Positions 3,613 through 62,562 of a stretch of 64,000 nucleotides of DNA are shown piece by piece (position 1 is the stretch's first letter; each line of letters opens with the position of its first letter). Under the pieces are notes generated by a model, which ran no database searches, was not told the DNA's origin, and was given only the letters and a program-made list of their open reading frames with translations. Origin of the DNA: Eubacteriales bacterium (lineage in GTDB: Bacteria; Bacillota; Clostridia; Oscillospirales; CAG-272); NCBI GenBank assembly GCA_045658315.1, contig JAZOUV010000023.1, positions 15,065 through 79,064 on the forward strand. Reading direction: 5' to 3'. Position numbers and translations under genes: made by a program.

Positions 3613-4941
3613 CTATATCTTGTCTTTAATGCTGTTTATGTATTCAACGGAACGGTTTGCCAACGCTTCATTTCTAAAACGCTTACCGCCTTTTACCTTT
3701 GTTTCAAGGTTTGCAACAAGTCCAAAATTTGCGTTCATAGGCTGAAAATTCACAACGTTTTCATCGCTTATATAGTGAGCCAAAGCACCTATTGCGGTTA
3801 TGTTGGGAAAGTCAACAAGCTCTGTGCCTTTTGCAAATCTTGCCGCATTTACGCCTGCAACAAAGCCGCTTGATGTTGACTCAACATATCCTTCAACCCC
3901 TGTCATCTGTCCTGCAAAAAATACATTTGGCTTGTTTTTCATTGCATAAAAATGGTTCAGGCAGGCGGGGGAGTTTATAAACGTATTTCTGTGCATAACT
4001 CCGTAACGGAGAAAGGTTGCATTTTCGAGTCCGGGTATCATCGAAAATACCCTCTTCTGCTCACCGAAGGTCAGGTGTGTCTGGAAGCCAACCAGATTAT
4101 ACATAGTCTTTTCGGCATTTTCCTGACGAAGTTGAATAACCGCATAAGGGTCCTTGCCGGTCTTGGGGTCTGGCAGACCTACCGGTTTAAGAGGTCCGTA
4201 GCGAAGGGTATCATACCCCCTTTTCGCCATAACCTCAACGGGCATACAGCCCTCAAAAACATTAGGTTTTTTCTGAGAGTCGGAGTCAAACTCTTTCAAG
4301 TGTGCTTCTTCAGCATTGATTAGGGCATTGTAAAATGCATCGTACTCATCTTTTGTCATGGGACAGTTCAGATATGACGCCTCACCCTTACCGTATCGGG
4401 AGGCCGCATATATTTTGTTCATGTCAAGTGTCGAACGATCCACTATCGGTGCTGAAGCATCGAAGAAAGAAAGGTGGCTCTTTCCGAGAAAACTTTCAAG
4501 ATATTCCGAAAAAACATCGGACGTCAAAGGACCGGTCGCAATAACCGTTATCTCGTCTTCGGGGATAGAACTGACCTCTTCTTCAATAAGGTTGATAAGG
4601 GGATTATTCTTTATCTCGTTTGTAATATATTCGGAAAACCTATGTCTGTCAACAGCCAAAGCCGAGCCTGCTTCAACCTGTGTTGCGTATGCTGCCTTCA
4701 TTATCAGAGAATCCATCAGCCTCAGCTCCTCTTTCAGCAGTCCAACTGCATTTGTCAAAACATTGCTTCGGAGGGAGTTGGAGCATACAAGCTCAGCCAA
4801 ATTATCCGATGTGTGTGCAGGAGTCTTTTTTTGGGGTTTCATCTCGTAAAGGTCAACGTATACCCCTCGTTTTGCCGCCTGGTAAGCCGCTTCACAGCCT
4901 GCAAGTCCTGCACCGAATATATTTATCTTATTACTTTTCAT
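3613..4941 (-). CDS. trmFO: methylenetetrahydrofolate--tRNA-(uracil-5-)-methyltransferase TrmFO
   Basis: 442 aa. FAD-binding N-terminus [21 protein letters not shown], then [20 protein letters not shown], typical of TrmFO/Gid. Confidence 0.9.
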
Positions 4942-7213
4942 CTTTTGTATTTTTTTCTTCTTGGCGGCTGTATTCGCACTTTTCGTTTCTGCAATATATT
5001 AGCTTTTTGCGTTTCTTCACCAGAAGTGCGTCACCGCACTGAGGACATTTTTCGCCCGTCGGCATATCCCATGATGAGAAATTACAGTCAGGATATTTTT
5101 CGCAGCTATAGAAAGTAATATGCTTTTTACCGCCCTGCTTTGTTATAATCTTTGAGCCGCAGATAGGGCAGGATATGCCCGTCTCTTTGGATATCTGCTT
5201 TGTGTTACGGCACTTGGGGTATGCCGAGCAGGCATAGAACGATCCGAACTTGCCTGAACGGATAACCATTTCGGAGCCGCATTTTTCACATATCATACCC
5301 GTGGATACCGTCTCTTTTGTTTCCTTTTCCTTCTTGGGTTCTTTCAGCTTGCCGTCCTTGTCAAGCGGCTTTGTGTTCTTACATTCGGGATAGTTGGGGC
5401 AGGCGGCAAACTTGCCATATCTGCCGTTCTTAACTATCATCTTAACGCCGCAATGCTCACAGATAATATCAATCTCTTCGGGCGGAATATCTATCTCGCC
5501 GTTCTTTGCCGCCTCTTCCGCTTTCGCAAGGCTTACCTTGAATCCATCGTAAAACTCTGACAGGATATGGAGCATATTGTCGTTTCCGTTTTCGACAGCG
5601 TCGAGTTTATCTTCCATCTGGGCTGTGAATTTGTAGTCAATGATCTCGGGAAAATTTTCCATTATAAGCTTTGTTGTCATCTCACCGAGATAAGTGGGTT
5701 TAAGTGATTTGCCTTCGCGTGTTACATAATCTCTTGCAATAATCGTAGTAATAATTGGAGTGTATGTCGAAGGTCTGCCGATCCCTTTTTCTTCAAGCTG
5801 TTTAACAAGCGAAGCTTCGGTATATCTGGGGGAAGGTTCCGTGAAATGTTGTTCGGGTAAAAGCTCACTGCATTCAAGCTTTTCGCCCTCGTTTATCTCA
5901 ATGGGCTTTGTCTGCTTTTCGGTATCTGCAAATTCACCGTAATCGCCGGGATCGTATACCGACAAAAAGCCGGGGAATTTTACATTGTAGCCGCTTGAAT
6001 GGAAAATATATCCGTTTGCATCTATCTCGGCATTAACCGTGTTAAGCTGTGCCGATGCCATCTGTGATGCTAAAAATCTATCCCATATAAGCTTATATAG
6101 CTTGTATTGGTCGCTTGAAAGATATTTCTTAATACGCTCGGGCTCAAAATCAAGCGAAGAGGGACGAATAGCTTCGTGTGCGTCCTGTGCTGTAGATTTT
6201 GACTTATAATATCTCTTCTGAGCAGGGTAATATTCCTCTCCGTACTTTGCCTTGATATAGCTTTCGGCACTTGCGGATGCTTCTCCGGATATACGGAGTG
6301 AGTCGGTACGCATATAGGTTATAAGACCGTGTACGCCGCCGTTTTCGCTTCCGATATTTATACCTTCATAAAGCTCCTGAGCGATCTGCATAATCTTCTG
6401 TGAACGGAAGTTAAGTTTTCTTGAAGCCTCCTGCTGGAGAGTCGATGTTGTAAAGGGCGGGGCAGGATTTCGGTTTTTTATCGCCTTCTTTACCGAGACT
6501 ACGACAAAATCGCTGTTCTTGACCGCGTTGTAGACCTTGTCGGTTTCCTCTTGGTCGTGAAGCTCTATCTTGCCGTTTTTATCGCCGTAAAAATTTGCCT
6601 TGAATGTCTTTGATTTTTCTGTGAGAAGGTGGGCTGTAACTGTCCAATATTCAGTAGGAACAAATGCTCTTATCTCCTCTTCACGTTCAACAATAAGTCG
6701 GGTCGCAACAGACTGAACACGTCCTGCGGAAAGTCCGCTTTTTAACGTTTTCCAAAGAAACGGACTTGCCTTATAACCAACTATTCTGTCTAAGATTCGT
6801 CTTGTCTGCTGAGAGTTTACAAGATTCATATTTATGGGTTTGGGATCCTTTATTGCCGCTTTAACAGCTGTCTTTGTGATTTCGTTGAAGGATATTCTCT
6901 TTGCCTTTGCCGGATCAATACCCAATGCCGCCGCAAGATGCCATGATATTGCTTCTCCCTCACGGTCAGGGTCAGTTGCGAGGAATACTTTGTTTGCGTT
7001 CTTCGCTTCCTTCCTGAGCTCGGTGATAAGGGGTCCTTTTCCTCTTATGTTTATATAATGTGCCTCAAAGTTATTTTCAATATCAACGCCGAGGGTACTC
7101 TTCGGCAGGTCTCTTACGTGACCCTTGGAGGCGGTTACTTTGTAGCCGCTGCCGAGATAACCTTTTATTGTATTTGCTTTTGCAGGGGATTCAACTATTA
7201 CGAGATTTGACAT
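4931..7213 (-). CDS. topA: DNA topoisomerase I
   Basis: 760 aa. TOPRIM N-terminus [17 protein letters not shown], and four C-terminal CxxC...CxxC zinc-ribbon repeats visible in the translation. Confidence 0.95.
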
Positions 7214-10628: not shown

Positions 10629-10794
10629 AAAACACCTCCACAAAAAATAAAAAATGCACGAAATCAGCAACAACTCCGTACAAAAATGCACACACAGAGA
10701 TATAATTTAATCCCTATGTCATTTTATTAACCTCGTACAAGTCTTATGCTCTACGGGTGAGAACGGAGCGTTCTGCTTCTTTTTTTACCTTGTG

Positions 10795-10993: not shown

Positions 10994-11911
10994 TTGGCGG
11001 CAAAAAGAAAACCCGATATTCCGCAAAAGAATAACGGAAACAAAAGCAGAATAAAAAGAGCTCCCGTTACCCGTACTCCCGAACAGCCGAGAGAAGCTTT
11101 GAGACGCTCATCTTCTCCGAAAATGAATATCAACGAGCAGACTCCCTCGAAAAGACGTGCCTTAAGAGAGACCAAGAGGATCGATCCGGATTCTCCCGAG
11201 ATAAGAAGAAGTGCGAAAAAGGCTCAGGGTTATAAGATCAAAAAGAAAAAGAAGGGCATCAGCAGAGTTTTTGTCGCATATGCCGTACTGTTCGTCATTG
11301 TCTTTGCGGCTGTGGCGGGGGTGATTTCACTTGCTTTTTACACCAATTTGACGGCGACAGAGCCATCAGCCTATGACGGTCTTAGACTGAAGCTGTGTCT
11401 TGAACATGAGGCAAAGGATCTTAAAGCTGTTGTCGTCGACACCGAAAAATATGTCATCGATGGCGAATTGTACGTCAATATGACGGCTATATCCGAGAAA
11501 TTCGGTTTTATTATGACGGGTGACCGCAAGTGGCTCAGGTTTATTACCAACGAAAAAACGGGAGAAAGCGTTTGTTTTGAGACAGGCACTCCTTTTGCGG
11601 AAATAAACGGCACGGAAGTAAGGCTTAACAGTAATGTTTTAAATCTTGACGGCTCTCTGTTTGTGCCTGCTGAATTTTTCAATGAATATGTAAACGGTAT
11701 GGAAATATCCTTTGATGAAGAGGAAAATATACTGTCAATACTCCGTGATACTGCAAGAAATGAGGCGGGGCACTTTGACGAAGCGGAGATCGGTTTTAGG
11801 CTGAAGCCGGTTGAAGACAGTACTTCTATATCGGAGTTTGAGCTTTCCGAGGAAATTAAAGGGAAATGCTATTTTATTCCCTTAACGCCTGCGGTGTCTC
11901 CGCAAAGTTAA
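10994..11911 (+). CDS. membrane-anchored protein with basic N-terminal tail and copper-amine-oxidase-N-terminal-like (stalk) domain
   Basis: 305 aa. Lys/Arg/Pro-rich first ~95 aa, one TM helix (VFVAYAVLFVIVFAAVAGVISLAFY), then DGELYVNMTAISEKFGF...INGTEVRLNSNVLNLDGSLFVPAEFF, which resembles stalk domains. The TTG start is uncertain. Confidence 0.5.
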   Translation: MAAKRKPDIPQKNNGNKSRIKRAPVTRTPEQPREALRRSSSPKMNINEQTPSKRRALRETKRIDPDSPEIRRSAKKAQGYKIKKKKKGISRVFVAYAVLFVIVFAAVAGVISLAFYTNLTATEPSAYDGLRLKLCLEHEAKDLKAVVVDTEKYVIDGELYVNMTAISEKFGFIMTGDRKWLRFITNEKTGESVCFETGTPFAEINGTEVRLNSNVLNLDGSLFVPAEFFNEYVNGMEISFDEEENILSILRDTARNEAGHFDEAEIGFRLKPVEDSTSISEFELSEEIKGKCYFIPLTPAVSPQS

Positions 11912-11931
11912 ATTATTTCAGGTGATTCAAA

Positions 11932-13089
11932 ATGGAAATAAAGAACAGTAATAACAGAAACTCCTCAAATAAGCCCAGAATTTACGGAACTTATGACGTG
12001 GAAAGGGTAAAGGCTCAAACCGTACACAGCCGAGAAAACGGAACGTATGCAAACAGAGCGAGATCTGTAACCCGTTCTGCCGGGAATGCTCCCCGAAATA
12101 CAGTCAGAGCTGCTGTAGGTAAAGATGGTTACAGACGACGCAGTCCTGCGTCGTATTCACAGAAAAATGGTAGCGATAAATTTTTATGGCTTCTTATTAT
12201 TCTTGCGGTAATAATGGTAATCGGTGCATTTTGTTTTCTTGTCAGTTTTATTAAAAGTGATAAATCCGAGACGGGCGATAATGAATCAGGAGCAGAAACT
12301 ACGGTGAATACGCCGGAAGAAAGCATCGGTGAGACTACAGCACCCGAAACCAACGAGACGACAGCTCCCGAAACCGTTCCGCCTGAGCTGTCAGCCCCCA
12401 TTCCGGAGTTTAAGGCTGACCTGTCGGCGTTTGAAATGTATATGAATCCTACGGGCGAACAACGGGATGCGTATCTTATTCTTGTTAATTCGGAAAATCC
12501 TCTTTCTGCAGATTATGTGCCACCGAATCTCGTTGATGTTAAAAGTACGAGAAAAGACGGGCAGAGAAAAGCACAGCAGTTGCAAGAATATGCGGCAAAA
12601 GCCCTCGAGGCTCTTATGCTTGAGGCTGATGCCTGCGGTATGGTAAGAACGAATACCCCAAGCGGATATCCTCTGTCGGTTATGAGTGCGTACAGAACCT
12701 ATGAGTATCAGCGAGAGCTCTTTTATGACCGTTATCTTGTGAATGAAATGAACAAGGGATACAGTCGGGAAGAAGCAGAAAAGATTGTTGCCACCTATTC
12801 AAACCGTCCCGGCACAAGCGAACATCAGGCGGGGCTTTGCGTGGATATGCACACATTGACTTCGGCCGGGCAGGCTTTCAAAAACGAACCTGAGGCAAAA
12901 TGGCTTGCCGAAAACTGCCACAAATTCGGCTTTATTCTCAGATATCCCGAGGATAAAATGGAAGAAACGGGCGGTATTATGTATGAGCCATGGCATTTCA
13001 GATATGTCGGCAGATACCACGCGACAAGAATGAAAGACCTTGATATGTGTCTTGAAGAGTACGTTGAATATTTAAAAAATAACGCATAA
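11932..13089 (+). CDS. D-alanyl-D-alanine carboxypeptidase, VanY/peptidase M15B family, membrane anchored
   Basis: 385 aa. N-terminal basic tail plus TM (FLWLLIILAVIMVIGAFCFLVSFI). Catalytic motifs SEHQAGLCVDM and EPWHFRYVG. Confidence 0.85.
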   Translation: MEIKNSNNRNSSNKPRIYGTYDVERVKAQTVHSRENGTYANRARSVTRSAGNAPRNTVRAAVGKDGYRRRSPASYSQKNGSDKFLWLLIILAVIMVIGAFCFLVSFIKSDKSETGDNESGAETTVNTPEESIGETTAPETNETTAPETVPPELSAPIPEFKADLSAFEMYMNPTGEQRDAYLILVNSENPLSADYVPPNLVDVKSTRKDGQRKAQQLQEYAAKALEALMLEADACGMVRTNTPSGYPLSVMSAYRTYEYQRELFYDRYLVNEMNKGYSREEAEKIVATYSNRPGTSEHQAGLCVDMHTLTSAGQAFKNEPEAKWLAENCHKFGFILRYPEDKMEETGGIMYEPWHFRYVGRYHATRMKDLDMCLEEYVEYLKNNA

Positions 13090-13107
13090 GTATTTAGGAG
13101 GAATAGT

Positions 13108-13629
13108 ATGGATGCAATTAAGTGTCTCCTTGAAAGAAGAAGTATACGCAGTTTTACCGATAAAAAAATTGCAAGAGAGGACCTTGAAACGATAGTAAAA
13201 GCTGCATATCACGCCCCCAGTGCTATGAACAGACAGTTATGGCAGTTTACCGTTGTGCAAAATGCAGAAATTATAGAGGCACTTGCAAAGTGCTTACGTG
13301 TAAAACTGGGCAGGGATGAAGGATATTGCTTTTACAGACCCAATGCGGTAATACTCTGCTCAAACCCGAGGGACAACGCTCTCGGTGTTGAAGACTGTGC
13401 CGTGGCTATGGAAAATATATTCCTTGCCGCACATGCTCTTGGTATAGGCTCCGTTTGGATAAACCAGTTTAAGGGCGTTTGCGATGATCCCGGTGTCAGA
13501 GCCGAGCTTGATAAAATAGGCGTGCCTGCCGACCACCTTGTATACGGAATGGCAGCTCTCGGCTATGCGGCAGAAGATGCTGTTCGCAACTTTGAGAAAA
13601 ATTCCAATGTTGTAAAATGGGTAATGTAA
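13108..13629 (+). CDS. nitroreductase family protein
   Basis: 173 aa. RRSIRSFTDKKI...AYHAPSAMNRQLWQFTVV is the typical nitroreductase fold signature. AGGAGG SD 7 nt upstream. Confidence 0.85.
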   Translation: MDAIKCLLERRSIRSFTDKKIAREDLETIVKAAYHAPSAMNRQLWQFTVVQNAEIIEALAKCLRVKLGRDEGYCFYRPNAVILCSNPRDNALGVEDCAVAMENIFLAAHALGIGSVWINQFKGVCDDPGVRAELDKIGVPADHLVYGMAALGYAAEDAVRNFEKNSNVVKWVM

Positions 13630-13648
13630 GAAAATACAGTAATAAATA

Positions 13649-13689
13649 ATAGGGGCTGAGTCATTGAACTTAGCCCCTATTACTTTTTT
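13649..13689 (+). terminator. rho-independent terminator after the nitroreductase gene
   Basis: ATAGGGGCTGAG-tcattgaa-CTTAGCCCCTAT followed by TACTTTTTT. Confidence 0.8.
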
Positions 13690-13719
13690 ACCGTTGCACT
13701 TGATAGTATAACTCACCAA

Positions 13720-13758
13720 TACAATAAACGGGCTGATAGCATTAAGCTATCAGCCCGT
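13720..13758 (-). terminator. terminator after purH
   Basis: ACGGGCTGATAGC-attaa-GCTATCAGCCCGT, a 13-bp stem. The T-rich tract on the minus strand is moderate (TTATTGTATTG). Confidence 0.65.
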
Positions 13759-13772
13759 AAATCATTTATGGA

Positions 13773-15323
13773 TTAATGCTTGAAGTGTCTCTTGCCTGTG
13801 AATACCATTGCAATGCCGTACTTGTTGCATGCATCAATGGATTCTTGGTCGCGTATACTTCCGCCGGGCTGAATGATAGCTGTTATTCCGGCCTTGTGAG
13901 CCGCTTCTACGCAGTCAGCGAAGGGGAAGAATGCATCGCTTGCCATGACGCTTCCAACGACTTTTTCGCCGCCGTACTTAATTGCAAGTTCAAGTGCTGT
14001 GATTCTGTTTGTCTGACCGGGGCCAATACCTACGGTTGCACCGTTTTTTGCAAGAGTTATGCCGTTGGATTTGGTGTGTTTAACAACCTTCATAGCAAAC
14101 TTCATATCGCGGAGCTGTTCTGCCGTAGGAGACTTTTCGGTAACAACCTTAACGTCAGCATCATCATACATTTCTGTGTTGAGTTCCTGAACGAGTAGTC
14201 CGCCTGCAACCTTCTTCATATCGAACATTTCTTTTCTGTTCGGTTTTGCAATTTCGGGGAGACGGAGAACACGGAGGTTCTTCTTTGTGCAGAGAACTTG
14301 GAGAGCTTCTGCATCGTATTCGGGAGCGATAATAATTTCAAGGAAGAGTTCAGCAAGCTTCTGAGCTGTCTTGGAATCAACCTTGCGGTTGAATGCAACG
14401 ATGCCGCCGAAAATAGATACGGGGTCAGCCTCGTATGCTCTCATATATGCTTCATAAACCGATTCGCCTATACCTACGCCGCAGGGATTTGCATGCTTCA
14501 ATGCAACACAGCATATATCGTCGCCAAACTCTTTGATTGTATCAAGAGCACCGTTTGCGTCGTTAATATTATTATAGGATAGTTCTTTTCCGTTGAGCTG
14601 TTCAGCCGCAGCCAAAGTTCCCTCAAAGCCCTTGCCTACCTCGCGGTAGAATGCTGCTGCCTGATGGGGGTTTTCGCCATAACGCATTTCGCTTACCTTT
14701 TCGTAAGTAAGAGAGAGCTTTTCGGGGAAGCAGGGCATACCGCTTTCTTTTCTGAGATATCCCGAAATAAGTGTGTCGTAAGCCGCTGTATGCTCGAATA
14801 CTTTGTAAGATAATTTAAGTTTTGTATCCTTTGAAACCTCGCCGTTTGCTTCAAGTTCGCTTGTTACGGTGTCATAGTCAACGGGGTCAACGATAACTGC
14901 AACGTCCTGCCAGTTTTTTGCAGCTGCACGAAGCATTGTAGAACCGCCGATGTCGATGTTTTCAATAGCATCTTCGCGTGTAACATTGTCCTTCAAGATT
15001 GTTTCCTTGAAAGGATAGAGGTTGATAGCAACAACATCGATAGGTGTTACACCGAGTTCTTCGATCTGTTTCATGTGTTCTTCGTTGCCTCTCATAGCGA
15101 GAATACCTGCATGAATCATGGGGTGAAGAGTCTTAACACGTCCGTCGAGACATTCGGGGAACCCTGTAACATCAGAAACGTTAGTAACTGCAACGCCGTT
15201 GTCTGTCAAAGTTTTTGCAGTACCGCCTGTTGAAAGGATCTCATAGCCTAATTTTTCGAGGCGTTTTGCAAATTCAACAACGCCCGTCTTGTCTGATAAG
15301 CTTATTATAGCACGCTTTTTCAT
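13773..15323 (-). CDS. purH: bifunctional AICAR formyltransferase / IMP cyclohydrolase
   Basis: 516 aa. [37 protein letters not shown]...VKTLHP match PurH. Confidence 0.97.
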
Positions 15324-15346
15324 GTTTTACCTCTCTTGTTTTATGG

Positions 15347-15973
15347 TTAATTTTTTATTTTTACTATATTGTTTTCAACTGTAAGTCTTTCGTTGCAAAG
15401 CAAGTCAAGAGCACGGGGAAGAATCTCCCATTCCGCATTTTCCATAACTCTTTTCTGCAACGTCTCGGGTGTGTCGTCTTCTTCTATGCAAACCGCCTTT
15501 TGCAGAATGATAGGTCCGCCGTCTGCAATCTCATTTACAAAGTGAACGGTAGCCCCCGTCACCTTAACGCCCTTAGCTAAAGCCGCCTCGTGAACATGGA
15601 GTCCGTAAAATCCCTCTCCGCAAAAGCTTGGAATAAGTGCAGGGTGTACGTTAAGTATCTTGTTTGTATATTTCTCAATGATTTTGCCGCTTAATATGTG
15701 CATAAAGCCTGCCAATACAATGATATCAATGTCGTATTCTTCAAGCTTTTCAAAGATAGCATCCGAAAAAGCCTCTCTGTCAGTCCCCTTTTTAATAACA
15801 CAGCTTTCGATTCCGTTGTTTGCGGCTCTTTCCAATGCATAAGCCTTTTCATTGCTCGAAAGAACTAAAGAGAGTTTTCCGTTAGTTATCTTGCCCGCCT
15901 TGTATGCATCAATAATTGCCTGTAGGTTTGTTCCGCCGCCCGAAACGAGAACGGCAATATTTTTTTGTTTCAT
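15347..15973 (-). CDS. purN: phosphoribosylglycinamide formyltransferase
   Basis: 208 aa. NIAVLVSGGGTNLQAIID, LAGFM and NVHPALIP motifs. Confidence 0.95.
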   Translation of the reverse strand: MKQKNIAVLVSGGGTNLQAIIDAYKAGKITNGKLSLVLSSNEKAYALERAANNGIESCVIKKGTDREAFSDAIFEKLEEYDIDIIVLAGFMHILSGKIIEKYTNKILNVHPALIPSFCGEGFYGLHVHEAALAKGVKVTGATVHFVNEIADGGPIILQKAVCIEEDDTPETLQKRVMENAEWEILPRALDLLCNERLTVENNIVKIKN

Positions 15974-15974
15974 A

Positions 15975-17363
15975 TCAGTTTTCTCCCGGCACTTTTACAG
16001 GATAGTTGCCCGTAAAGCAAGCATCGCAGAACTCAATGTTGGAGTCGCTTACTATATCCTTAAGGTCTTCTACAGCAAGGTATGCAAGGGAATCTGCACC
16101 TATCTCTTTTCTGATTTCGTCAAGTGTGAGACGGCAGGCAATGAGTTTGTCTCTTGATGCAATATCCGTGCCGAAATAGCAAGGGTTGAGAAATGGGGGA
16201 GAAGATATACGGAAATGTACTTCCGTTGCACCTGCGTGGCGGATAAGCTCGATTAGGTGTGCACAGGTCGTTCCTCTTACAATAGAGTCGTCAACAACAA
16301 CAACTCTCTTGCCCCTCAGCACCGCCGGCATAGGATTGAGCTTGAGTCTTACTAAGTTCTCTCTTTCGCCCTGACCTGTCTGAATGAATGTTCTTCCGAT
16401 GTAACGGTTTTTATTCAATCCTACACCGTAGGGAATACCCGATTCTGCGGCATATCCCAAAGCTGCGTCAAGTCCACTGTCGGGTACGCCGATTACTATA
16501 TCGGCAATATTTTTGGAATCTCTCTTTGCAAGGCATCTTCCTGCTGCCTGTCTTGCAAAATGTACGCTCTGTCCGTCGATAACGGAGTCGGGTCTTGCAA
16601 AGTAGATATGTTCAAAAATACAGCCGGTAGTTTTCTGACCGCATTTTTCTGCGTAAGATTCAACGCCGTCTTTTGTGACCGCAACAACTTCACCGGGCTG
16701 AATATCACGGATAAATTTACCGCCGATAGCATCTATCGCACAAGACTCCGAAGCAAATACAACGGCATCATTAAGCGAACCCATACAAAGAGGTCTGAAA
16801 CCCTTGGGGTCTCTTGCGGCGATAAGCTTGTTAGGTGTCATTATAACTACAGAGTATGCACCCGAAAGTCTGTCCATAATATTGATAAGTGCCTGTTCTG
16901 TAGATACTGTTTTAAGTCTTTCGCGGGATACCATATATGCAATTATTTCAGCGTCGGAGTTAGTGTGGAACATAGCCCCCGATTCTTCCAGGTTTGCACG
17001 TATCTCGTTTGCCCCTACAAGTGAGCCGTTGAAAGATATCGCTATCTGTCCTTTTGTGTATTTTGAAACGTAGGGAAGGTTGTTTTCACGTCCCTTGTTG
17101 TCGGCAGACGCATAACGCACGTGGCCTATTGCTATGTTACCCTTGAGGTAGTTGAGGATCATCTCGTTGAACACCTCGTTGAGCAATCCCTCGTCATTGT
17201 GGTTATAAATCATACCATTGTTGTTTACGGCGATACCGCAGGACTGCTGTCCTCTGTGCTGTAATGCGTAAAGTCCCGAATATGTTATCTGAGTTACATT
17301 GAGTTTCTTTGCGGGGTCGAATATACCGAATACACCGCATTCTTCATGGATCTTTCCAAACAT
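15975..17363 (-). CDS. purF: amidophosphoribosyltransferase
   Basis: 462 aa. N-terminal nucleophile context ECGVFGIF and the PRT motif VVVVDDSIVRGTT. Confidence 0.97.
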   Translation of the reverse strand: MFGKIHEECGVFGIFDPAKKLNVTQITYSGLYALQHRGQQSCGIAVNNNGMIYNHNDEGLLNEVFNEMILNYLKGNIAIGHVRYASADNKGRENNLPYVSKYTKGQIAISFNGSLVGANEIRANLEESGAMFHTNSDAEIIAYMVSRERLKTVSTEQALINIMDRLSGAYSVVIMTPNKLIAARDPKGFRPLCMGSLNDAVVFASESCAIDAIGGKFIRDIQPGEVVAVTKDGVESYAEKCGQKTTGCIFEHIYFARPDSVIDGQSVHFARQAAGRCLAKRDSKNIADIVIGVPDSGLDAALGYAAESGIPYGVGLNKNRYIGRTFIQTGQGERENLVRLKLNPMPAVLRGKRVVVVDDSIVRGTTCAHLIELIRHAGATEVHFRISSPPFLNPCYFGTDIASRDKLIACRLTLDEIRKEIGADSLAYLAVEDLKDIVSDSNIEFCDACFTGNYPVKVPGEN

Positions 17364-17399
17364 ATATTATTTTTCCTCCGAAATCTTAACCGATAAAAC

Positions 17400-17897
17400 T
17401 TATATATTTTTGATTTCTTCTTGGAGCTTTGCGTCCTTGAGTTTTACGCCTTCAGCCATTTTAACCTTTTCCGCTTCAAGCTTTTCTGCGAGTTCATCGT
17501 CTGAAAGGGCGATTATCTGTGCGGCGAGAATAGCCGCATTTGCACAGCCGTCAACTGCTACCGTTGCAACGGGTACGCCGGGAGGCATCATTATGGTAGA
17601 AAGGAGTGCGTCCATTCCGTCGAAAGATGCACTTTTTACGGGAATTCCTATAACGGGAAGTGTGGTATATGCCGCAAGTACACCGCCGAGGTGTGCCGCC
17701 ATACCTGCCGCACTGATAATAACGCCAAAACCGTTAGCCTTTGCATTTTTTGCAAAACTTGCCGCTTCGTCAGGCGTTCTGTGTGCGGAATACACGTGAG
17801 TCTCAAACGGAATACCGAAATATTTCAGCTTTTCGAGACAAATTTTTACCTTGGGGAAATCGCTGTCGCTTCCCATAATTACAGCTACTTTTTTCAT
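17400..17897 (-). CDS. purE: 5-(carboxyamino)imidazole ribonucleotide mutase
   Basis: MKKVAVIMGSDSDFP...SAHRTP...AAGMAAHLGGVLAAYTTLPVIGIPV. Start moved to ATG 17897, behind GGAGGG with 7-nt spacing. The track start at 17954 adds 19 aa with no SD. Confidence 0.93.
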   Translation of the reverse strand: MKKVAVIMGSDSDFPKVKICLEKLKYFGIPFETHVYSAHRTPDEAASFAKNAKANGFGVIISAAGMAAHLGGVLAAYTTLPVIGIPVKSASFDGMDALLSTIMMPPGVPVATVAVDGCANAAILAAQIIALSDDELAEKLEAEKVKMAEGVKLKDAKLQEEIKNI

Positions 17898-17940
17898 ATG
17901 GTTGCCCTCCTGATTTATGTAAATATTAGTTAAAACGAAA

Positions 17941-17975
17941 CACAAAAAGGACATTCTTAGGGTGAATGTCCTTTT
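17941..17975 (-). terminator. intrinsic terminator/attenuator between the leader transcript and purE
   Basis: On the minus strand, AAAAGGACATTC-accctaa-GAATGTCCTTTT followed by TGTGTTT. It sits 44 nt upstream of the purE ATG and abuts the stop codon of the small ORF. Confidence 0.8.
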
Positions 17976-18093
17976 ATTTTGCTATCGTTAAAGAGTTGCA
18001 GTTATACTGTGCAGTTTTGCCGAAATGGGTGCAACAAGGCTGTGAAGATGAGCAAATTGTGTTTGATTTGCAACAGCACATACAACGTGTCAT
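17974..18093 (-). CDS. possible 39-aa Cys-rich small ORF in the pur leader (MTRCMCCCKSNTICSSSQPCCTHFGKTAQYNCNSLTIAK)
   Basis: In-frame ATG at 18093 with GGAGG (rc of 18104-18108) 10 nt upstream, and 8 Cys in 39 aa. It lies wholly inside the promoter-to-terminator unit. It may be non-coding leader RNA instead. Confidence 0.25.
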   Translation of the reverse strand: MTRCMCCCKSNTICSSSQPCCTHFGKTAQYNCNSLTIAK

Positions 18094-18129
18094 ACCGCAT
18101 TTTCCTCCGACAAAACAAAATACACCAAT

Positions 18130-18158
18130 ATTATACATAATATAATTAAACTTGTCAA
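18130..18158 (-). promoter_or_regulatory. consensus sigma-70 promoter driving the pur leader
   Basis: On the minus strand, TTGACA (18158-18153), a 17-nt spacer, then TATAAT (18135-18130). Both hexamers are perfect. Confidence 0.8.
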
Positions 18159-18211
18159 TCGGTAATATAACATTTTTATCGTTAATACAAACATTTTTTG
18201 TCATATTTTTC

Positions 18212-18703
18212 TTATAATAAATACTTATTTGCTAGATTAATTACTTTTAATCCTTTTCTGTAGGCATAGTTTACGGTGTAAAATGTTCCCCCGAATTGTT
18301 TCTTTAAATAACACAAACAAATACTGCTTGAATTAACAAGGTGTCTGTTTCTTTTATACATACATGTGTTGTCATAGTTTTCGGATGTATAAACGATTTT
18401 GTCGCTTTTGTCTTTAATTTTTAAATATCTTTTTTTGTCTTTTTTTGACCAATATTTCGTTTGGTCTTTACATGGATAAACCATTATCAGTTTTATATGC
18501 GTTTTTTTCTTCTTTAAGCGAAGTATTTCTTCGGCGGCTATAGTATCAAAACCTACGGCACCGCCACAACCGAAATATACTATTCCGTTGTCAACCAATG
18601 AAATAAGAGTCTTTCGTATCTTTTTTCTTAACATAATCAGTTTGTGTAAAGGTATATTTCTGTGTCCGCTTATGCAACAGGTTTTTTCAATCAAAATAAT
18701 CAT
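18212..18703 (-). CDS. DUF1273 / SLOG-family protein (YpsA/YoqJ-like)
   Basis: 163 aa. CCISGHRN..., FGCGGAVGFDTIAAEEIL and GGTFYTVNYAYRKG match the DUF1273 SLOG pattern (xxTGHR, GGAxGxD, GGTxxTxxYA). Very AT-rich. Confidence 0.75.
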   Translation of the reverse strand: MIILIEKTCCISGHRNIPLHKLIMLRKKIRKTLISLVDNGIVYFGCGGAVGFDTIAAEEILRLKKKKTHIKLIMVYPCKDQTKYWSKKDKKRYLKIKDKSDKIVYTSENYDNTCMYKRNRHLVNSSSICLCYLKKQFGGTFYTVNYAYRKGLKVINLANKYLL

Positions 18704-18807
18704 TCCTTTCGTTCTGTATAGACTAACACATTATATAACGTATTAATCTATATGTAAAGTGAAAAAATAAGATACTATTTAAAAAATATATAACGAGGAA
18801 GTATCTT

Positions 18808-19011
18808 ATGATAAAGTTAAGGGTTTTGGATTTATTAAAAAAGAACGGAAAGACAAAATATTGGCTGTATAAGCAGCTTGGAATGAGTTATCAGAATTTC
18901 AACAAAATGGTAAATAATGAAACTAAATCCATTCGTTATGAAAATATTGAAACTATGTGTTTGCTTTTTAATTGTACGCCAAACGATTTATTTGAAATAA
19001 CAGAGGATTAA
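18808..19011 (+). CDS. small XRE/Cro-family helix-turn-helix transcriptional regulator
   Basis: 67 aa. LLKKNGKTKYWLYKQLGMSYQNFNKMVNNETKSIRYENIETMCLLFNCTPNDLF is a typical single HTH_XRE domain. GAGGAAG SD upstream. Divergent from the SLOG gene. Confidence 0.8.
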   Translation: MIKLRVLDLLKKNGKTKYWLYKQLGMSYQNFNKMVNNETKSIRYENIETMCLLFNCTPNDLFEITED

Positions 19012-19071: not shown

Positions 19072-19306
19072 TAAGAAAAATAATGCAGTGATCGGGAAAA
19101 TGCCGTCGGATATAGGTTATTAAAAGGGTTCAGAGAGTGCATTGCTTAGGTGTAAGATGCATACCCGCCGAGACGGAAGTGCGCCCGTGAGCAGGTGTTA
19201 ATCACACCCGTTTTGTCAGCGATAACAGACACGCAAGTTATAAACCGAAGTGGAACCGCGGAATGTGCCGCCTTTGAGTAATATCAAAGGCGGATTTTTG
19301 TTTTTT
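19072..19306 (+). promoter_or_regulatory. T-box riboswitch leader, cysteine-specific (UGC)
   Basis: AGAGAG bulge (~19131) and a distal-loop-like GGUGUAA. The T-box sequence AAGUGGAACCGCG is at 19248-19260. The terminator GCCGCCTTTGA-gtaata-TCAAAGGCGG plus T-run is at 19267-19306. UGC triplets occur at 19158 and at 19180 (context GAAG-UGC-G). cysE and cysS lie downstream. Confidence 0.8.
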
Positions 19307-32221: not shown

Positions 32222-32600
32222 TTCCCCCTTTGGAATCCTCCTTGGTTTGTGCGTAGTTATAATATATTACTTAAAGGTGAAGTGCTATTTATGGATAGTA
32301 TTTTTAAAAATACTATCTAAGGCATTCCCCTTTGGAATCCTCCTTGGTTTGTACGTAGTTATTACATATTACTTAAAGGTGAAGTGCTATTTATAGATAG
32401 TATTTTTTAAAATACTATCTAAGGCATTCCCCTTTGGAATCCTCCTTGGTATGTGCATAGTTATAATGACAACATAGAGGTGAAATTCTATTTATAGATA
32501 GGTATTTTTTTAAAATACTATCTAAGATATTCCCTCTTTGGAATCCTCCTTGGTATGTGATTAGTTATGATAATTTCTTAGAGGTAAAATGCATGTATTA
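32222..32600. repeat. tandem repeat, about 3.7 units of ~102 bp
   Basis: Units start at 32222, 32325, 32427 and 32530. The TTTGGAATCCTCCTTGG block recurs at 32229, 32331, 32433 and 32537 (periods 102, 102, 104). R1/R2 are ~93% identical, and R3 and R4 are progressively diverged. AT palindromes lie at 32294-32317, 32395-32420 and 32496-32523. Confidence 0.9.
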
Positions 32601-32623
32601 AGCAAGAAAATATGTAAAAACTA

Positions 32624-32652
32624 TTGACGGAAAAGTATATAAAGTATATAAT
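32624..32652 (+). promoter_or_regulatory. promoter of the potABCD operon (long leader)
   Basis: TTGACG (32624-32629), a 17-nt spacer, then TATAAT (32647-32652). Predicts a ~385-nt 5' UTR before potA. Confidence 0.65.
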
Positions 32653-38147: not shown

Positions 38148-38238
38148 GGAGAAGTACTCAAGTTGGTGAAGAGGCGCCCCTGCTAAGGGTGTAGGTCGGG
38201 TAACCGGCGCGAGAGTTCAAATCTCTCCTTCTCCGCCA
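38148..38238 (+). tRNA. tRNA-Ser (anticodon GCU), CCA encoded
   Basis: Manual cloverleaf. Acceptor GGAGAAG/CTTCTCC, anticodon stem CGCCC/GGGTG with loop CU-GCU-AA, long variable arm (type II), T arm GAGAG-TTCAAAT-CTCTC, discriminator G, then CCA. Confidence 0.9.
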
Positions 38239-38280
38239 AAAATACGACGGTATGGTAAAACCATTCCGTCGTATTTTTTT
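38239..38280 (+). terminator. rho-independent terminator after tRNA-Ser
   Basis: AAAATACGACGG-tatggtaaaaccatt-CCGTCGTATTTT plus T-run. Confidence 0.8.
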
Positions 38281-38467: not shown

Positions 38468-38487
38468 AAATCTCTCCTTCTCCGCCA
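38468..38487 (+). repeat. 20-nt exact duplicate of the tRNA-Ser 3' end (att-like direct repeat)
   Basis: AAATCTCTCCTTCTCCGCCA at 38219-38238 and again at 38468-38487. Similarity continues into the following A-rich/ACGAC sequence. Confidence 0.9.
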
Positions 38488-38488
38488 G

Positions 38489-38522
38489 AAAACGACAAGT
38501 TTCGACAGAAACTTGTCGTTTT
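38489..38522 (+). terminator. hairpin/terminator following the duplicated tRNA 3' end
   Basis: AAAACGACAAGTTTC-gaca-GAAACTTGTCGTTTT, a 15-bp stem with a short T-run. Confidence 0.55.
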
Positions 38523-38697
38523 CAGTTATATTCGCCTTGCGGCGAGTTATATTGCTTCGCAGTTATATTTGCTTCGCAAGTGTTATTGCCCTTCGGGCAG
38601 TTAGGGGCGAATATTATATCACTGAAACCGCAGGTTTCAATATCACATTTTGCATAGCAAAATATATCACTCCGACGAAGTCGGAATATCACCAAAA
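38523..38697. repeat. multi-hairpin array element, copy A
   Basis: Left half: GTTATAT-type spacers (38525, 38546, 38562; degenerate at 38580 and 38600), each followed by a short hairpin. Right half: ATATCAC spacers at 38616, 38640, 38664 and 38686 (period 24, 24, 22), each followed by a 6-7-bp hairpin with a 3-nt loop. Long-range complement: 38528-38536 with 38606-38614. Confidence 0.85.
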
Positions 38698-38770
38698 ACT
38701 TACTGTTTATGTGAGAATTCGAATTCATACGCAAAAACGCCAGAAAATATCTTTTTTGTAGCCTATAGGC

Positions 38771-62146: not shown

Positions 62147-62191
62147 GATAAAAAAAGGAGCTTTTGCGAGACATCTCATAAGGAAGTCTCG

Positions 62192-62412
62192 CAGTTTTAT
62201 TCGCCAAAGGCGAGTTGTATTGCTTCGCAGTTATATTATGCTTACGCATGGTGGTATTGTCCTACGGACAGTTTTTTGGGCGAATAAAATAACACTACGA
62301 CCAAAGGGAGTAATAATACTTTCACAGAGTGAAAATAGCACCCTGTGCGTTAGCACAGAATACAACTTGTTTTTTCTTTTTTGTTGTAAAAGGTTTTGTG
62401 TATCACCAAAAA
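62192..62412. repeat. multi-hairpin array element, copy B
   Basis: Collinear with copy A, with a near-identical core GGCGAGTTGTATTGCTTCGCAGTTATATT (62209-62237). Hairpins at 62201-62213, 62221-62229, 62238-62249, 62258-62270, 62320-62334 and 62343-62358. Long-range complement: 62195-62205 with 62279-62289. Ends with TATCACCAAAAA, as copy A does. Confidence 0.85.
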
Positions 62413-62461
62413 AGCTTTTGCACTTACAAATGCGATGCTGGTTCTAACTGATAAGCATAAG

Positions 62462-62491
62462 AAAAACCTCGATGAATTTCATCGAGGTTTT
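62462..62491 (-). terminator. rho-independent terminator after gdhA
   Basis: On the minus strand, AAAACCTCGATGA-aat-TCATCGAGGTTTT followed by TCTTATGC. Confidence 0.8.
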
Positions 62492-62562
62492 AATCATCTT
62501 TATGAGAAGTAGCTATTTACAGCCCCTTATGTTTTTTTAAAAAAAACTACAAAGATTAAATT

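Follow-up and report, generated by a model that had tools for sequence, protein, structure and literature searches.

A small mobile element built around the Gut-1 hairpin array appears to be dispersed at gene 3' ends in gut Clostridia

The 64,000-nucleotide (nt) stretch of DNA analyzed here (hereafter the window; part of contig JAZOUV010000023.1 from the Eubacteriales bacterium assembly GCA_045658315.1) carries two non-coding arrays of short hairpins, copy A (38520-38700) and copy B (62192-62412, as first described), which, judging from their sequences and those of their relatives, represent two insertions of a short, non-coding mobile element centered on the hairpin array known to Rfam as Gut-1 (RF01706). 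The element shows dyad symmetry, whereby approximately four units of “AGTKATATT plus a short perfect hairpin” are followed by approximately four such units on the opposite strand, with the loops mirrored as well, and its copies are scattered over the 3' ends of non-homologous genes among uncultured gut Clostridia (Acutalibacteraceae, Oscillospiraceae, and related taxa). Terminator-like hairpins at both of its ends face incoming transcription. On sequence grounds, copies A and B belong to different subfamilies of one dispersed mobile element rather than being paralogues that had co-evolved in place, and copy B, which relatives lack at the orthologous site, is an insertion specific to its lineage. 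As for the object under constraint, folded single-stranded DNA is tentatively favored below, and a functional small RNA is the first of the rivals weighed against it.

Gut-1 Identity of the Two Arrays

At gathering thresholds, an Rfam scan of the window finds a tRNA alone. Under the Gut-1 cut-off of 50 bits, however, RF01706 is matched by the left half of copy A (38523-38591, + strand, 46.2 bits, E = 8e-8), by its right half (− strand, 43.1 bits, E = 5e-7), and by the left half of copy B (62192-62262, + strand, 35.8 bits, E = 2e-5 locally); the E-values of these three matches over the whole window (6e-6 to 3e-3) are significant, and the window holds no other Gut-1 match. The cut-off itself is passed by seven matches in 6 of 19 loci of like architecture (L080 with 64.0 and 60.2 bits, L086 with 56.9, L031 with 55.2, L010 with 54.4, L098 with 50.9, and L017 with 51.4), the last of which is a member of copy B's own subfamily. 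The hallmarks of the motif, namely, at least three tandem hairpins, 3-nt spacers within a conserved GUKAWAU linker, a first hairpin of the UUCGCC/GGCGAG type, and covariation-supported stems, are all found, and by these features copies A and B belong to a known family that has been in Rfam since 2010 with its function unexplained. The earlier note on this DNA had seen the structure and missed the Gut-1 family, the mirror-image right half, and the true extent of the element.

The motif dates from 2010, when Weinberg et al. described it from 43 sequences of human-gut metagenomes without assigning a host or a function and rated it “certainly” RNA from its covariation (PMC2864571). The flanks in the 2010 Stockholm/seed file hold the full architecture, including the unannotated right array (e.g., BAAZ01000095), one instance follows a tRNA, and some of the seed sequences carry GUGAUAU linkers. 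The literature on Gut-1 function, on terminator-targeting miniature inverted-repeat transposable elements (MITEs), and on Acutalibacteraceae repeats yielded nothing beyond the 2010 description.

Dispersal, Empty Sites, and Split Terminators

Other copies were surveyed in a single genome of each species by exact matching to 20 nt of the core, a pattern that fixes the hairpin h2 and therefore leaves it uninformative on conservation. At least 119 genome stretches keep the architecture, where the earlier note would have taken an absence of additional copies as telling against selection on structure. Those among the matches listed all come from metagenome-assembled genomes (MAGs) of Acutalibacteraceae, Oscillospiraceae, “Eubacteriales”, Faecousia, Ca. 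Fimenecus, and similar lineages from ruminant and human guts, with up to three exact-core copies per assembly; likewise among the matches listed, 123 instances from ~100 species keep the plan, with four left linkers in 78 of the 123 and four being the commonest number of right linkers (59/123). Density is low: the 872 kb of loci examined contained 2 further elements, and the 537 kb of unrelated control loci, which came from a metagenome scan with GdhA for orthologous sites (best match 69% identical), contained none.

The genes next to the copies are unrelated housekeeping genes (125 Pfam families/84 proteins upstream and 82/58 downstream) with no gene-family enrichment on either side, and only two pairs among the 123 copies share even an upstream flank, which makes for a short non-coding element in several copies at non-homologous sites, as is expected of a MITE. 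An empty site is seen at gdhA in the loci L200-L204, where the synteny of a 746-amino-acid (aa) SASA protein, a 441-aa open reading frame (ORF), and a convergent gdhA is retained and the stop codons are separated by 60-94 nt with a plain bidirectional terminator, versus 416 nt in the window. The contigs with empty sites encode GdhA 90, 86, 83, and 82% identical, and one of these genomes (GCA_045580755.1) has the element elsewhere (L088). In the corresponding comparison for copy A, made via icd homologues, synteny breaks downstream of icd.

Many copies lie between the two arms of a host-specific bidirectional terminator stem: in 18 of 91 copies (control 0), the element is flanked on both sides by an exact inverted repeat with a length of 12 nt or more, and in 31 (control 4) by one of 10 nt or more, the arms being AAAA plus stem just 5' of the left hairpin and stem plus TTTT 260-315 nt downstream of the core. 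In the copy A type, on the other hand, a complete terminator stands immediately before the element, whose end is the last linker. At L089 (6900-7460), two complete elements of the copy B type stand in tandem, with the host 5' terminator arm GGCAGTCTTT repeated at their junction.

Other kinds of mobile DNA were considered and set aside. A genomic island next to tRNA-Ser, with the two copies as att-like repeats, was rejected, there being no integrase and the genes between the copies (38.9-62.1 kb: icd, aconitase, MgtE, TrmO, purL, and others) being housekeeping ones. A phage or plasmid origin was rejected as well, with one weak match to a “Bacteriophage sp.” contig and none to plasmids; the match in question is a partial copy A match (76% over 107 nt, E = 3e-11) at 5071-5178 of GenBank MT835815.1, an unannotated 17-kb contig from human feces. 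A separate observation concerns tRNA-Ser(GCT) itself (38148-38238, +), which lies upstream of copy A: its last 24 nt (AAATCTCTCCTTCTCCGCCA..., 38219-38242) are repeated 249 nt further on, at 38468-38491, just before copy A's terminator, and this repeat of the tRNA 3' end looks like an att-type scar of a mostly deleted integrated element. In other genomes, the array directly follows a tRNA and its terminator.

Subfamilies and Variant Copies

Subfamilies differ past the last right linker, each with a conserved 150-200 nt tail. In the subfamily of copy B (n = 10), the upstream gene differs in every copy, and common to all 10 are the left hairpin GCGAGACTTCTC-ATAA-GGAAGTCTCGC, the non-hairpin module ACGACCRRAGGGAGT, and a tail with a terminator-like end hairpin and an inverted copy, CCTTATGAGAAGT, of the left end. 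Terminal inverted repeats are present in this subfamily (ACTTCTCATAAGG / CCTTATGAGAAGT) and in L014 (TCATAAGGA / TCCTTATGA), and subfamily 1 has mirrored terminal hairpins.

The subfamily-1 tail (L016, L044, L097, and ~15 further loci) also carries, 20-150 nt past the last right linker, a promoter-like TTGAGA-N16/17-TATGTA pair with conserved hexamers and a variable spacer, then a hairpin, an AT palindrome, and a terminal hairpin mirroring the left terminal hairpin h0; L001, L008, L083, and L101 have one more perfect hairpin, GTTACGCAC...GTGCGTAAC, inserted there. ORFs past the tail of longer subfamily-2 copies were examined as possible cargo and rejected, as they vary by locus and are host genes. 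Two variant loci might be worth mentioning. L086 has back-to-back Gut-1 arrays (4615-4687, −, and 4940-5060, +) approximately 260 nt apart with a GC-richer stretch between them, and the linker types are unlike: one array has GUGAAAU/AUGAAAU linkers (56.9 bits), the other GUUAUAU linkers and a good + strand terminator at its end. L117 (~1750-2070, − strand of the locus) has a central terminator-like hairpin with a T-run, and several of its right-half hairpins mirror left ones (GTCC-TTC-GGAC versus GTCC-GAA-GGAC; CGCC-TAC-GGCG versus CGCC-GAA-GGCG), which hints, at the level of sequence, at an origin by inverted duplication.

Layout of Copies B and A

Copy B is a ~345-base non-coding insertion spanning ~62166-62510, with a terminal inverted repeat and a terminator-like hairpin at either end; the earlier note had its position right and its ends wrong, as the hairpins at 62166-62192 and 62463-62491 are included. 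The left terminal hairpin h0 (62166-62192, +; GCGAGACATCTC-ATAA-GGAAGTCTCGC, then AGTTTTATT) is kept in 10 copies with unrelated upstream flanks, contains the left terminal inverted repeat ACATCTCATAAGG (62171-62183), and, given the AGTTTTATT after the hairpin, looks like a terminator for the upstream 441-aa ORF. Next comes the left array, i.e., the Gut-1 motif proper (62193-62290, +; linkers AGTKDTATT), as delineated by the Gut-1 match and covariation, with the hairpins h1 (62199-62215), h2 (62219-62231; GCTTCGC, reading GCGAAGC on the − strand), h3 (62235-62252), and h4 (62256-62272). It is closed by the covariation-supported long-range helix P1 (62194-62205 with 62279-62290, +), which had been described previously, A-T to T-A swap included, and is indeed present.

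The mirror-image right array (62288-62367; linkers AATAACACT, AATAATACT, AATAGCACC, and AATACAACT) comprises a conserved non-hairpin module (62297-62311), h6 (62320-62334), and h7 (62343-62358). The subfamily-specific tail that follows (62368-62462, +), with a T-rich stretch and TTGTTGTAAAAGG, is kept in 10 copies with different flanking genes and includes two hairpins, one containing TATCACC (~62394-62411) and a decayed one of the ATTTGTACTTACAAAT type (~62413-62433). A hairpin that is terminator-like on both strands (62463-62491; AAAACCTCGATGAA-TTT-CATCGAGGTTTT) lies inside the element, and its stem covaries within the subfamily (CCTCG/CGAGG versus CCACG/CGTGG); this apparent gdhA terminator is part of the element. 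The right terminal inverted repeat CTTTATGAGAAGT (62498-62510, +; reverse complement of ACTTCTCATAAAG) matches the left repeat at 11 of 13 positions. Decay is mild in copy B, whose degenerate right linkers read AATAATACT, AATAGCACC, and AATACAACT versus the subfamily consensus AATATCACT; there is one mismatch in h0 and two in a tail hairpin, and the Gut-1 score of the copy is below that of its relatives.

Copy A directly follows a classical intrinsic terminator hairpin (38488-38523, +). Its left array (38524-38617, +) has the linkers AGTTATATT (three times) and AGTGTTATT and the hairpins h1-h4, each stem being lengthened by A-T, T-G, and T-A pairs between the ATT and AGT of the linkers; in its P1 (38528-38536 with 38606-38614, +), the 3' arm GGCGAATAT pairs back to the first linker plus TTCGCC. 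The right array (38611-38694, −; Gut-1 match on the − strand) has four ATATCAC linkers and three longer hairpins, h5-h7, with AATATCACT between them, and it is the left half turned round because AATATCACT is the reverse complement of AGTGATATT, a left linker variant.

Much of what had been reported for the two copies in the window stands. Pairwise alignment agrees that they are collinear (74% column identity), with coordinates and sequences as reported; the near-identical 29-nt core GGCGAGTTRTATTGCTTCGCAGTTATATT occurs in the window only at 38541-38569 and 62209-62237, which 0 of 100 shuffles match; and the copy B hairpins TGTCC-tac-GGACA (62258-62270), ATGC/GCAT (62238-62249), TTTCAC/GTGAAA (62320-62334), and CTGTGC/GCACAG (62343-62358) are all where they were placed, with both arms altered versus copy A. 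Folding energies lie well below those of shuffles on the + strand (z = -5.4 for copy A and -3.3 for copy B) and on the − strand (z = -5.0 and -4.1). The reading of the region past P1 had to be revised: the module at 62296-62312 (ACGACCAAAGGGAGT), previously called degraded, is kept in 10 of 10 copies of the subfamily, which makes it a conserved non-hairpin module rather than decay, and the “insertion” of about 40 nt is T-rich as claimed, only that it is the start of a conserved tail of ~145 nt. The TATCACCAAAAA thought to terminate both copies is not significant (shuffles average 0.77 matches, with two or more in 20/100) and was ruled out as the element end; that of copy B sits within the tail hairpin peculiar to its subfamily.

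Covariation and What It Supports

The covariation set consisted of 47 aligned canonical copies with an author-specified structure of 47 pairs, for which 500 shuffles and controls with slid partners were used. RNAalifold predicted P1 and the hairpins from the 47 copies, with two-sided changes in 25 of 48 pairs. The share of paired cells was 98.8%, as compared to 82.4% in the shuffles and 32-50% when the partners were slid, both-side changes were seen at 25 of the 47 pairs and occupied 317 cells versus 89 expected, and the covariation score was 0.39 versus 0.098, with 0/500 shuffles reaching any of the observed values. One P1 position is AU in 23 copies and UA in 23, and a third state, C-G, is seen in L011, L019, and L036.

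Pairing is, therefore, preserved far above chance in the 47 copies, and to that extent the earlier argument for selection on structure holds; its framing as compensation between A and B does not, as these are representatives of differing subfamilies that diverged elsewhere, B being a lineage-specific insertion. The compensatory differences between A and B are real, but between-subfamily, and on this view it was the active lineages that had to stay foldable. Wobble or one-sided changes are scarce (~12 cells versus 317 two-sided), the ~2700 pairs of the variable stems include 13 G-T versus 15 A-C, and many differences of the A/B type are swaps of whole palindrome modules (e.g., GC to CG) in the same slot. 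The near absence of wobble intermediates, together with the module swaps, therefore makes palindrome maintenance at the DNA level a live alternative to selection on RNA.

Symmetry of the Element: DNA or RNA?

The dyad symmetry extends to the unpaired loops, which on the + strand are TTC, TTT, TAC, TTGC, and TTAC in the left half and GAA, GCA, AAA, GCAA, and GTAA in the right half; GNRA-type loops are confined to the right half (18 versus 0) and their reverse complements to the left half (14 versus 0), and the right half matches Gut-1 on the minus strand. On the strand obeying the symmetry, the tips are C-GAA-G, C-GCA-G, or C-GNRA-G, with h2 being exactly d(GCGAAGC), a DNA mini-hairpin that melts at 76.5 °C, the RNA form of the related GCGAAAGC mini-hairpin melting at 39 °C (PMC13037366). 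Such mini-hairpins mark single-strand initiation sites (PMC13037366, PMC3201870). With DNA energy parameters, neither half shows any strand asymmetry. Left-right linker pairing in the form of stacked four-way junctions was also considered and rejected, since complementarity at the variable linker positions is at chance level over all 16 left-right combinations.

Taken together, the near-absent wobble, the two-fold symmetry, and the GCGAAGC-type loops make us lean towards DNA over RNA as the selected structure, because two-fold symmetry that includes unpaired loops is predicted by symmetric DNA processing and not by a single RNA, and because the stems are nearly pure Watson-Crick on both strands.

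Preferred and Rival Explanations

The explanation preferred here, tentatively and with confidence that stays somewhat short of even, is that the constrained object is folded single-stranded DNA, both halves of which are equivalently recognized by a putative mobilizing enzyme. Such an enzyme would act in trans and would recognize the repeated hairpin-plus-linker units alike at both halves, in a manner possibly resembling multi-site transposon ends or a REP (repetitive extragenic palindromic) cluster; the element would aim at the exposed loop or foot of terminator hairpins, and the host might tolerate it since the element's own end hairpins would replace the disrupted terminator. Carried to its full extent, which seems to us decidedly doubtful as a whole, the proposal would be that Gut-1 is not a small RNA but the recognition array of an undescribed mobile-DNA class, i.e., dyad-symmetric GCGAAGC-type DNA mini-hairpins with a conserved 9-nt linker, moved as folded single strands by a putative structure-specific enzyme that targets intrinsic-terminator loops, with replacement terminators at both ends.

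Several observations speak against this single-stranded DNA explanation. With RNA energy parameters, the stabler strand in 47/47 copies is + for the left half (-8.7 kcal/mol), and it is − for the right half, likewise in 47/47; this asymmetry, owed to the conserved A-U / U-G / U-A closing pairs, would be expected of an RNA. A minus-strand promoter-like site, TTGAAA-16/17-TGaTATWAT, built from h5, the first right linker, and the P1 arm, and directed into the left array, is found in 47/51 canonical copies (+ strand control 0/51); in copy A, it is TTGAAA-16-TGaTATAAT (38613-38640, −), with 11/12 consensus positions, pointing leftwards into the left array. A link to transcription is suggested by the element being co-oriented in 20 versus opposed in 8 unambiguous tandem-gene contexts and in 7/7 copies directly following a tRNA. 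(Orientation set by the direction of replication was considered and rejected, the GC-skew bias being weak, 54 versus 34.) Moreover, copy number is low, with few copies per genome; copy A follows a complete terminator instead of being nested in one; host arms around copy B are unrecognizable; the junctions show no consistent target-site duplication, T-rich runs and, in L112, a repeated CATCCTTT being what is seen there; and neither a transposase nor an autonomous partner was found in flanking genes or longer copies, whole genomes not having been searched.

The energy asymmetry and the promoter-like site speak for another reading, in line with the class assigned by Rfam, whereby the array would be transcribed as a functional small RNA (e.g., a multi-site decoy for a protein binding “hairpin + GUKAUAU” units) and merely carried or spread by a mobile element, which we regard as a possibility to be taken seriously, albeit one we think improbable. 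In copies of the A type, this could be an RNA of ~115 nt from the minus strand, starting at the central promoter, crossing the left array, and ending at the bidirectional terminator upstream. The “certainly” rating of 2010 (PMC2864571) speaks for it as well, as do the rare P1 variants, which are slightly more G-U than A-C on the + strand, the + strand terminator ending the array in variants L086 and L117, and the GNRA loops, which are RNA-typical too. The clues to its orientation, however, clash, as the wobble closings would put the left half on + and the right half on −, while the GNRA loops and the promoter would put the left half on −; the space between h0 and the array is too short for a + strand promoter, and the terminator-like hairpins at the element ends would insulate the interior from flanking transcription. 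A single RNA also leaves the mirror second array and mirrored loops unexplained, the variable stems are nearly without wobble, type II copies have no minus-strand terminator after h0, and copy B, which is decaying, lacks the promoter-like site.

Gene context (38 copies between convergent genes, 28 between tandem, and 6 between divergent ones, with the upstream stop codon 15-58 nt before the array in ~55) would likewise suit a cis-acting bidirectional termination/insulator cassette, in which either half would present the RNA polymerase arriving from its own side with a succession of weak “hairpin + U-rich linker” units, backing the end terminators and shielding 3' ends between convergent genes. 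The best RNA fold of each half is indeed that of the incoming direction, h1 and h4 (+ strand) and h7 (− strand) come out as terminator-like in a simple scan, and both the mirror symmetry and the free stem sequence would be accounted for. Such a cassette is nonetheless unlikely, in that the linkers are conserved as AGUKAUAUU and not as U-runs (UAUAUU after an extended stem makes a poor tail), the loops in the incoming orientation are UUC or UUGC instead of the stable GNRA of the real end hairpins, P1 is not explained, and one plain terminator suffices for relatives at the same site. An absence of any function, with neutral palindromic drift and template-switch “quasipalindrome correction” keeping short inverted repeats perfect, would fit the almost purely Watson-Crick stems, the module-level swaps, and the extra perfect tail hairpin of the four subfamily-1 loci above; it is considered very improbable, as mutational bias alone would be insufficient for keeping linkers, module number and order, P1, and loop classes across ~100 species at unrelated loci, and no such clusters occur in the control loci.

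Significance and Other Observations in the Window

What is newly added for Gut-1 are its hosts (Acutalibacteraceae, Oscillospiraceae, and related MAGs from ruminant and human guts), the recognition of the known motif as one half of a mirror-symmetric unit, a long-range helix with three covarying states, subfamily tails, and, by all appearances, its being a mobile insertion, one found within or behind intrinsic terminators and equipped with terminators of its own. That Gut-1 acts as RNA is an assumption now open to doubt. The single-stranded DNA reading, if true, would make Gut-1 a terminator-targeting element of a new type, and it would warn against taking covariation as proof of RNA; if the RNA reading were true, the element would be a vehicle spreading a structured RNA between gene ends.

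Elsewhere in the window, four tandem units of ~102 nt (the first two 95% identical), each holding an inverted repeat AAATACTATC.../...GATAGTATTT, occupy 32225-32634, with the GC content being 0.34 at 32-33 kb. Sub-threshold Rfam matches were seen to a T-box leader (19079-19278, +; 56.2 bits versus a cut-off of 93, E = 1.5e-9), adjoining the kilobase of lowest GC content in the window (0.29, 18-19 kb), and to an L20 leader (10644-10784, −; 33.7 versus 58.7). GC skew turns from negative to positive at ~11000-19000, with the cumulative skew minimum near 10-11 kb, and this switch could be a replication origin region or an inversion boundary.

Comparison with Known Systems

The Gut-1 RNA motif resembles the window copies in its tandem short hairpins closed by A-U / U-G, its GUGAAAU- or GUGAUAU-type linkers, its first hairpin UUCGCC...GGCGAG, its position after a terminator hairpin, and its origin in gut metagenomes. 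Unlike the element described here, the Rfam model is confined to three left-half hairpins, and the mirror right array, P1, terminal repeats, tails, terminator nesting, mobility, and host taxa are all undescribed for the motif; the window copies, in turn, have GUUAUAU rather than GUGAAAU linkers and score just under the gathering cut-off.

The mini-hairpins d(GCGAAGC) and d(CCGAAGG) are found in the phage G4 origin, in RSF1010 ssiA, and in N4 promoters (PMC13037366, PMC3201870). The most conserved hairpin of the element is likewise GCGAAGC on the minus strand, and, on the strand obeying the dyad symmetry, most of the tips are C-GAA-G, C-GCA-G, or C-GNRA-G. The mini-hairpin sites, however, are single or in sets of three at phage and plasmid origins, working with primases or a virion RNA polymerase, in contrast to arrays of 7-8 hairpins in chromosomal intergenic DNA with no replication link.

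REP sequences, bacterial interspersed mosaic elements (BIMEs), and REP doublets forming hairpins (REPINs) with their REP-associated tyrosine transposases (RAYTs), as known from E. coli and Pseudomonas, are extragenic palindromes at gene 3' ends or between convergent genes that are recognized as folded single-stranded DNA and that also influence mRNA stability and termination as a side effect; their stems are conserved in sequence, and they occur in hundreds of copies with a GTAG motif. The element shares with them the location at gene 3' ends and between convergent genes, the units in both orientations, and the short conserved motif 5' of each hairpin. It differs in that its stems vary freely and its linker (AGTKATATT) is conserved, with few copies per genome and no GTAG, which leaves it without the sequence-conserved palindromes, 5' GTAG, and high copy number that define REP/BIME elements.

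MITEs and other small dispersed repeats (Correia, ERIC, BOX, RUP) are non-coding, below 500 bp, have inverted-repeat ends, and can carry promoters or terminators. The element is comparable in its size of less than 500 bp, its non-coding nature, inverted-repeat ends, unrelated intergenic sites, presence/absence polymorphism, and subfamilies. Neither a target-site duplication nor a parent insertion sequence was found at the junctions and in the flanking genes of the copies examined, and the interior, which normally drifts in MITEs, is strongly conserved and structured. Nesting inside terminator stems is also unusual, perhaps the nearest analogues being IS1397 and ISKpn1, which insert in REP loops, and class C group II introns, which do so after terminators.

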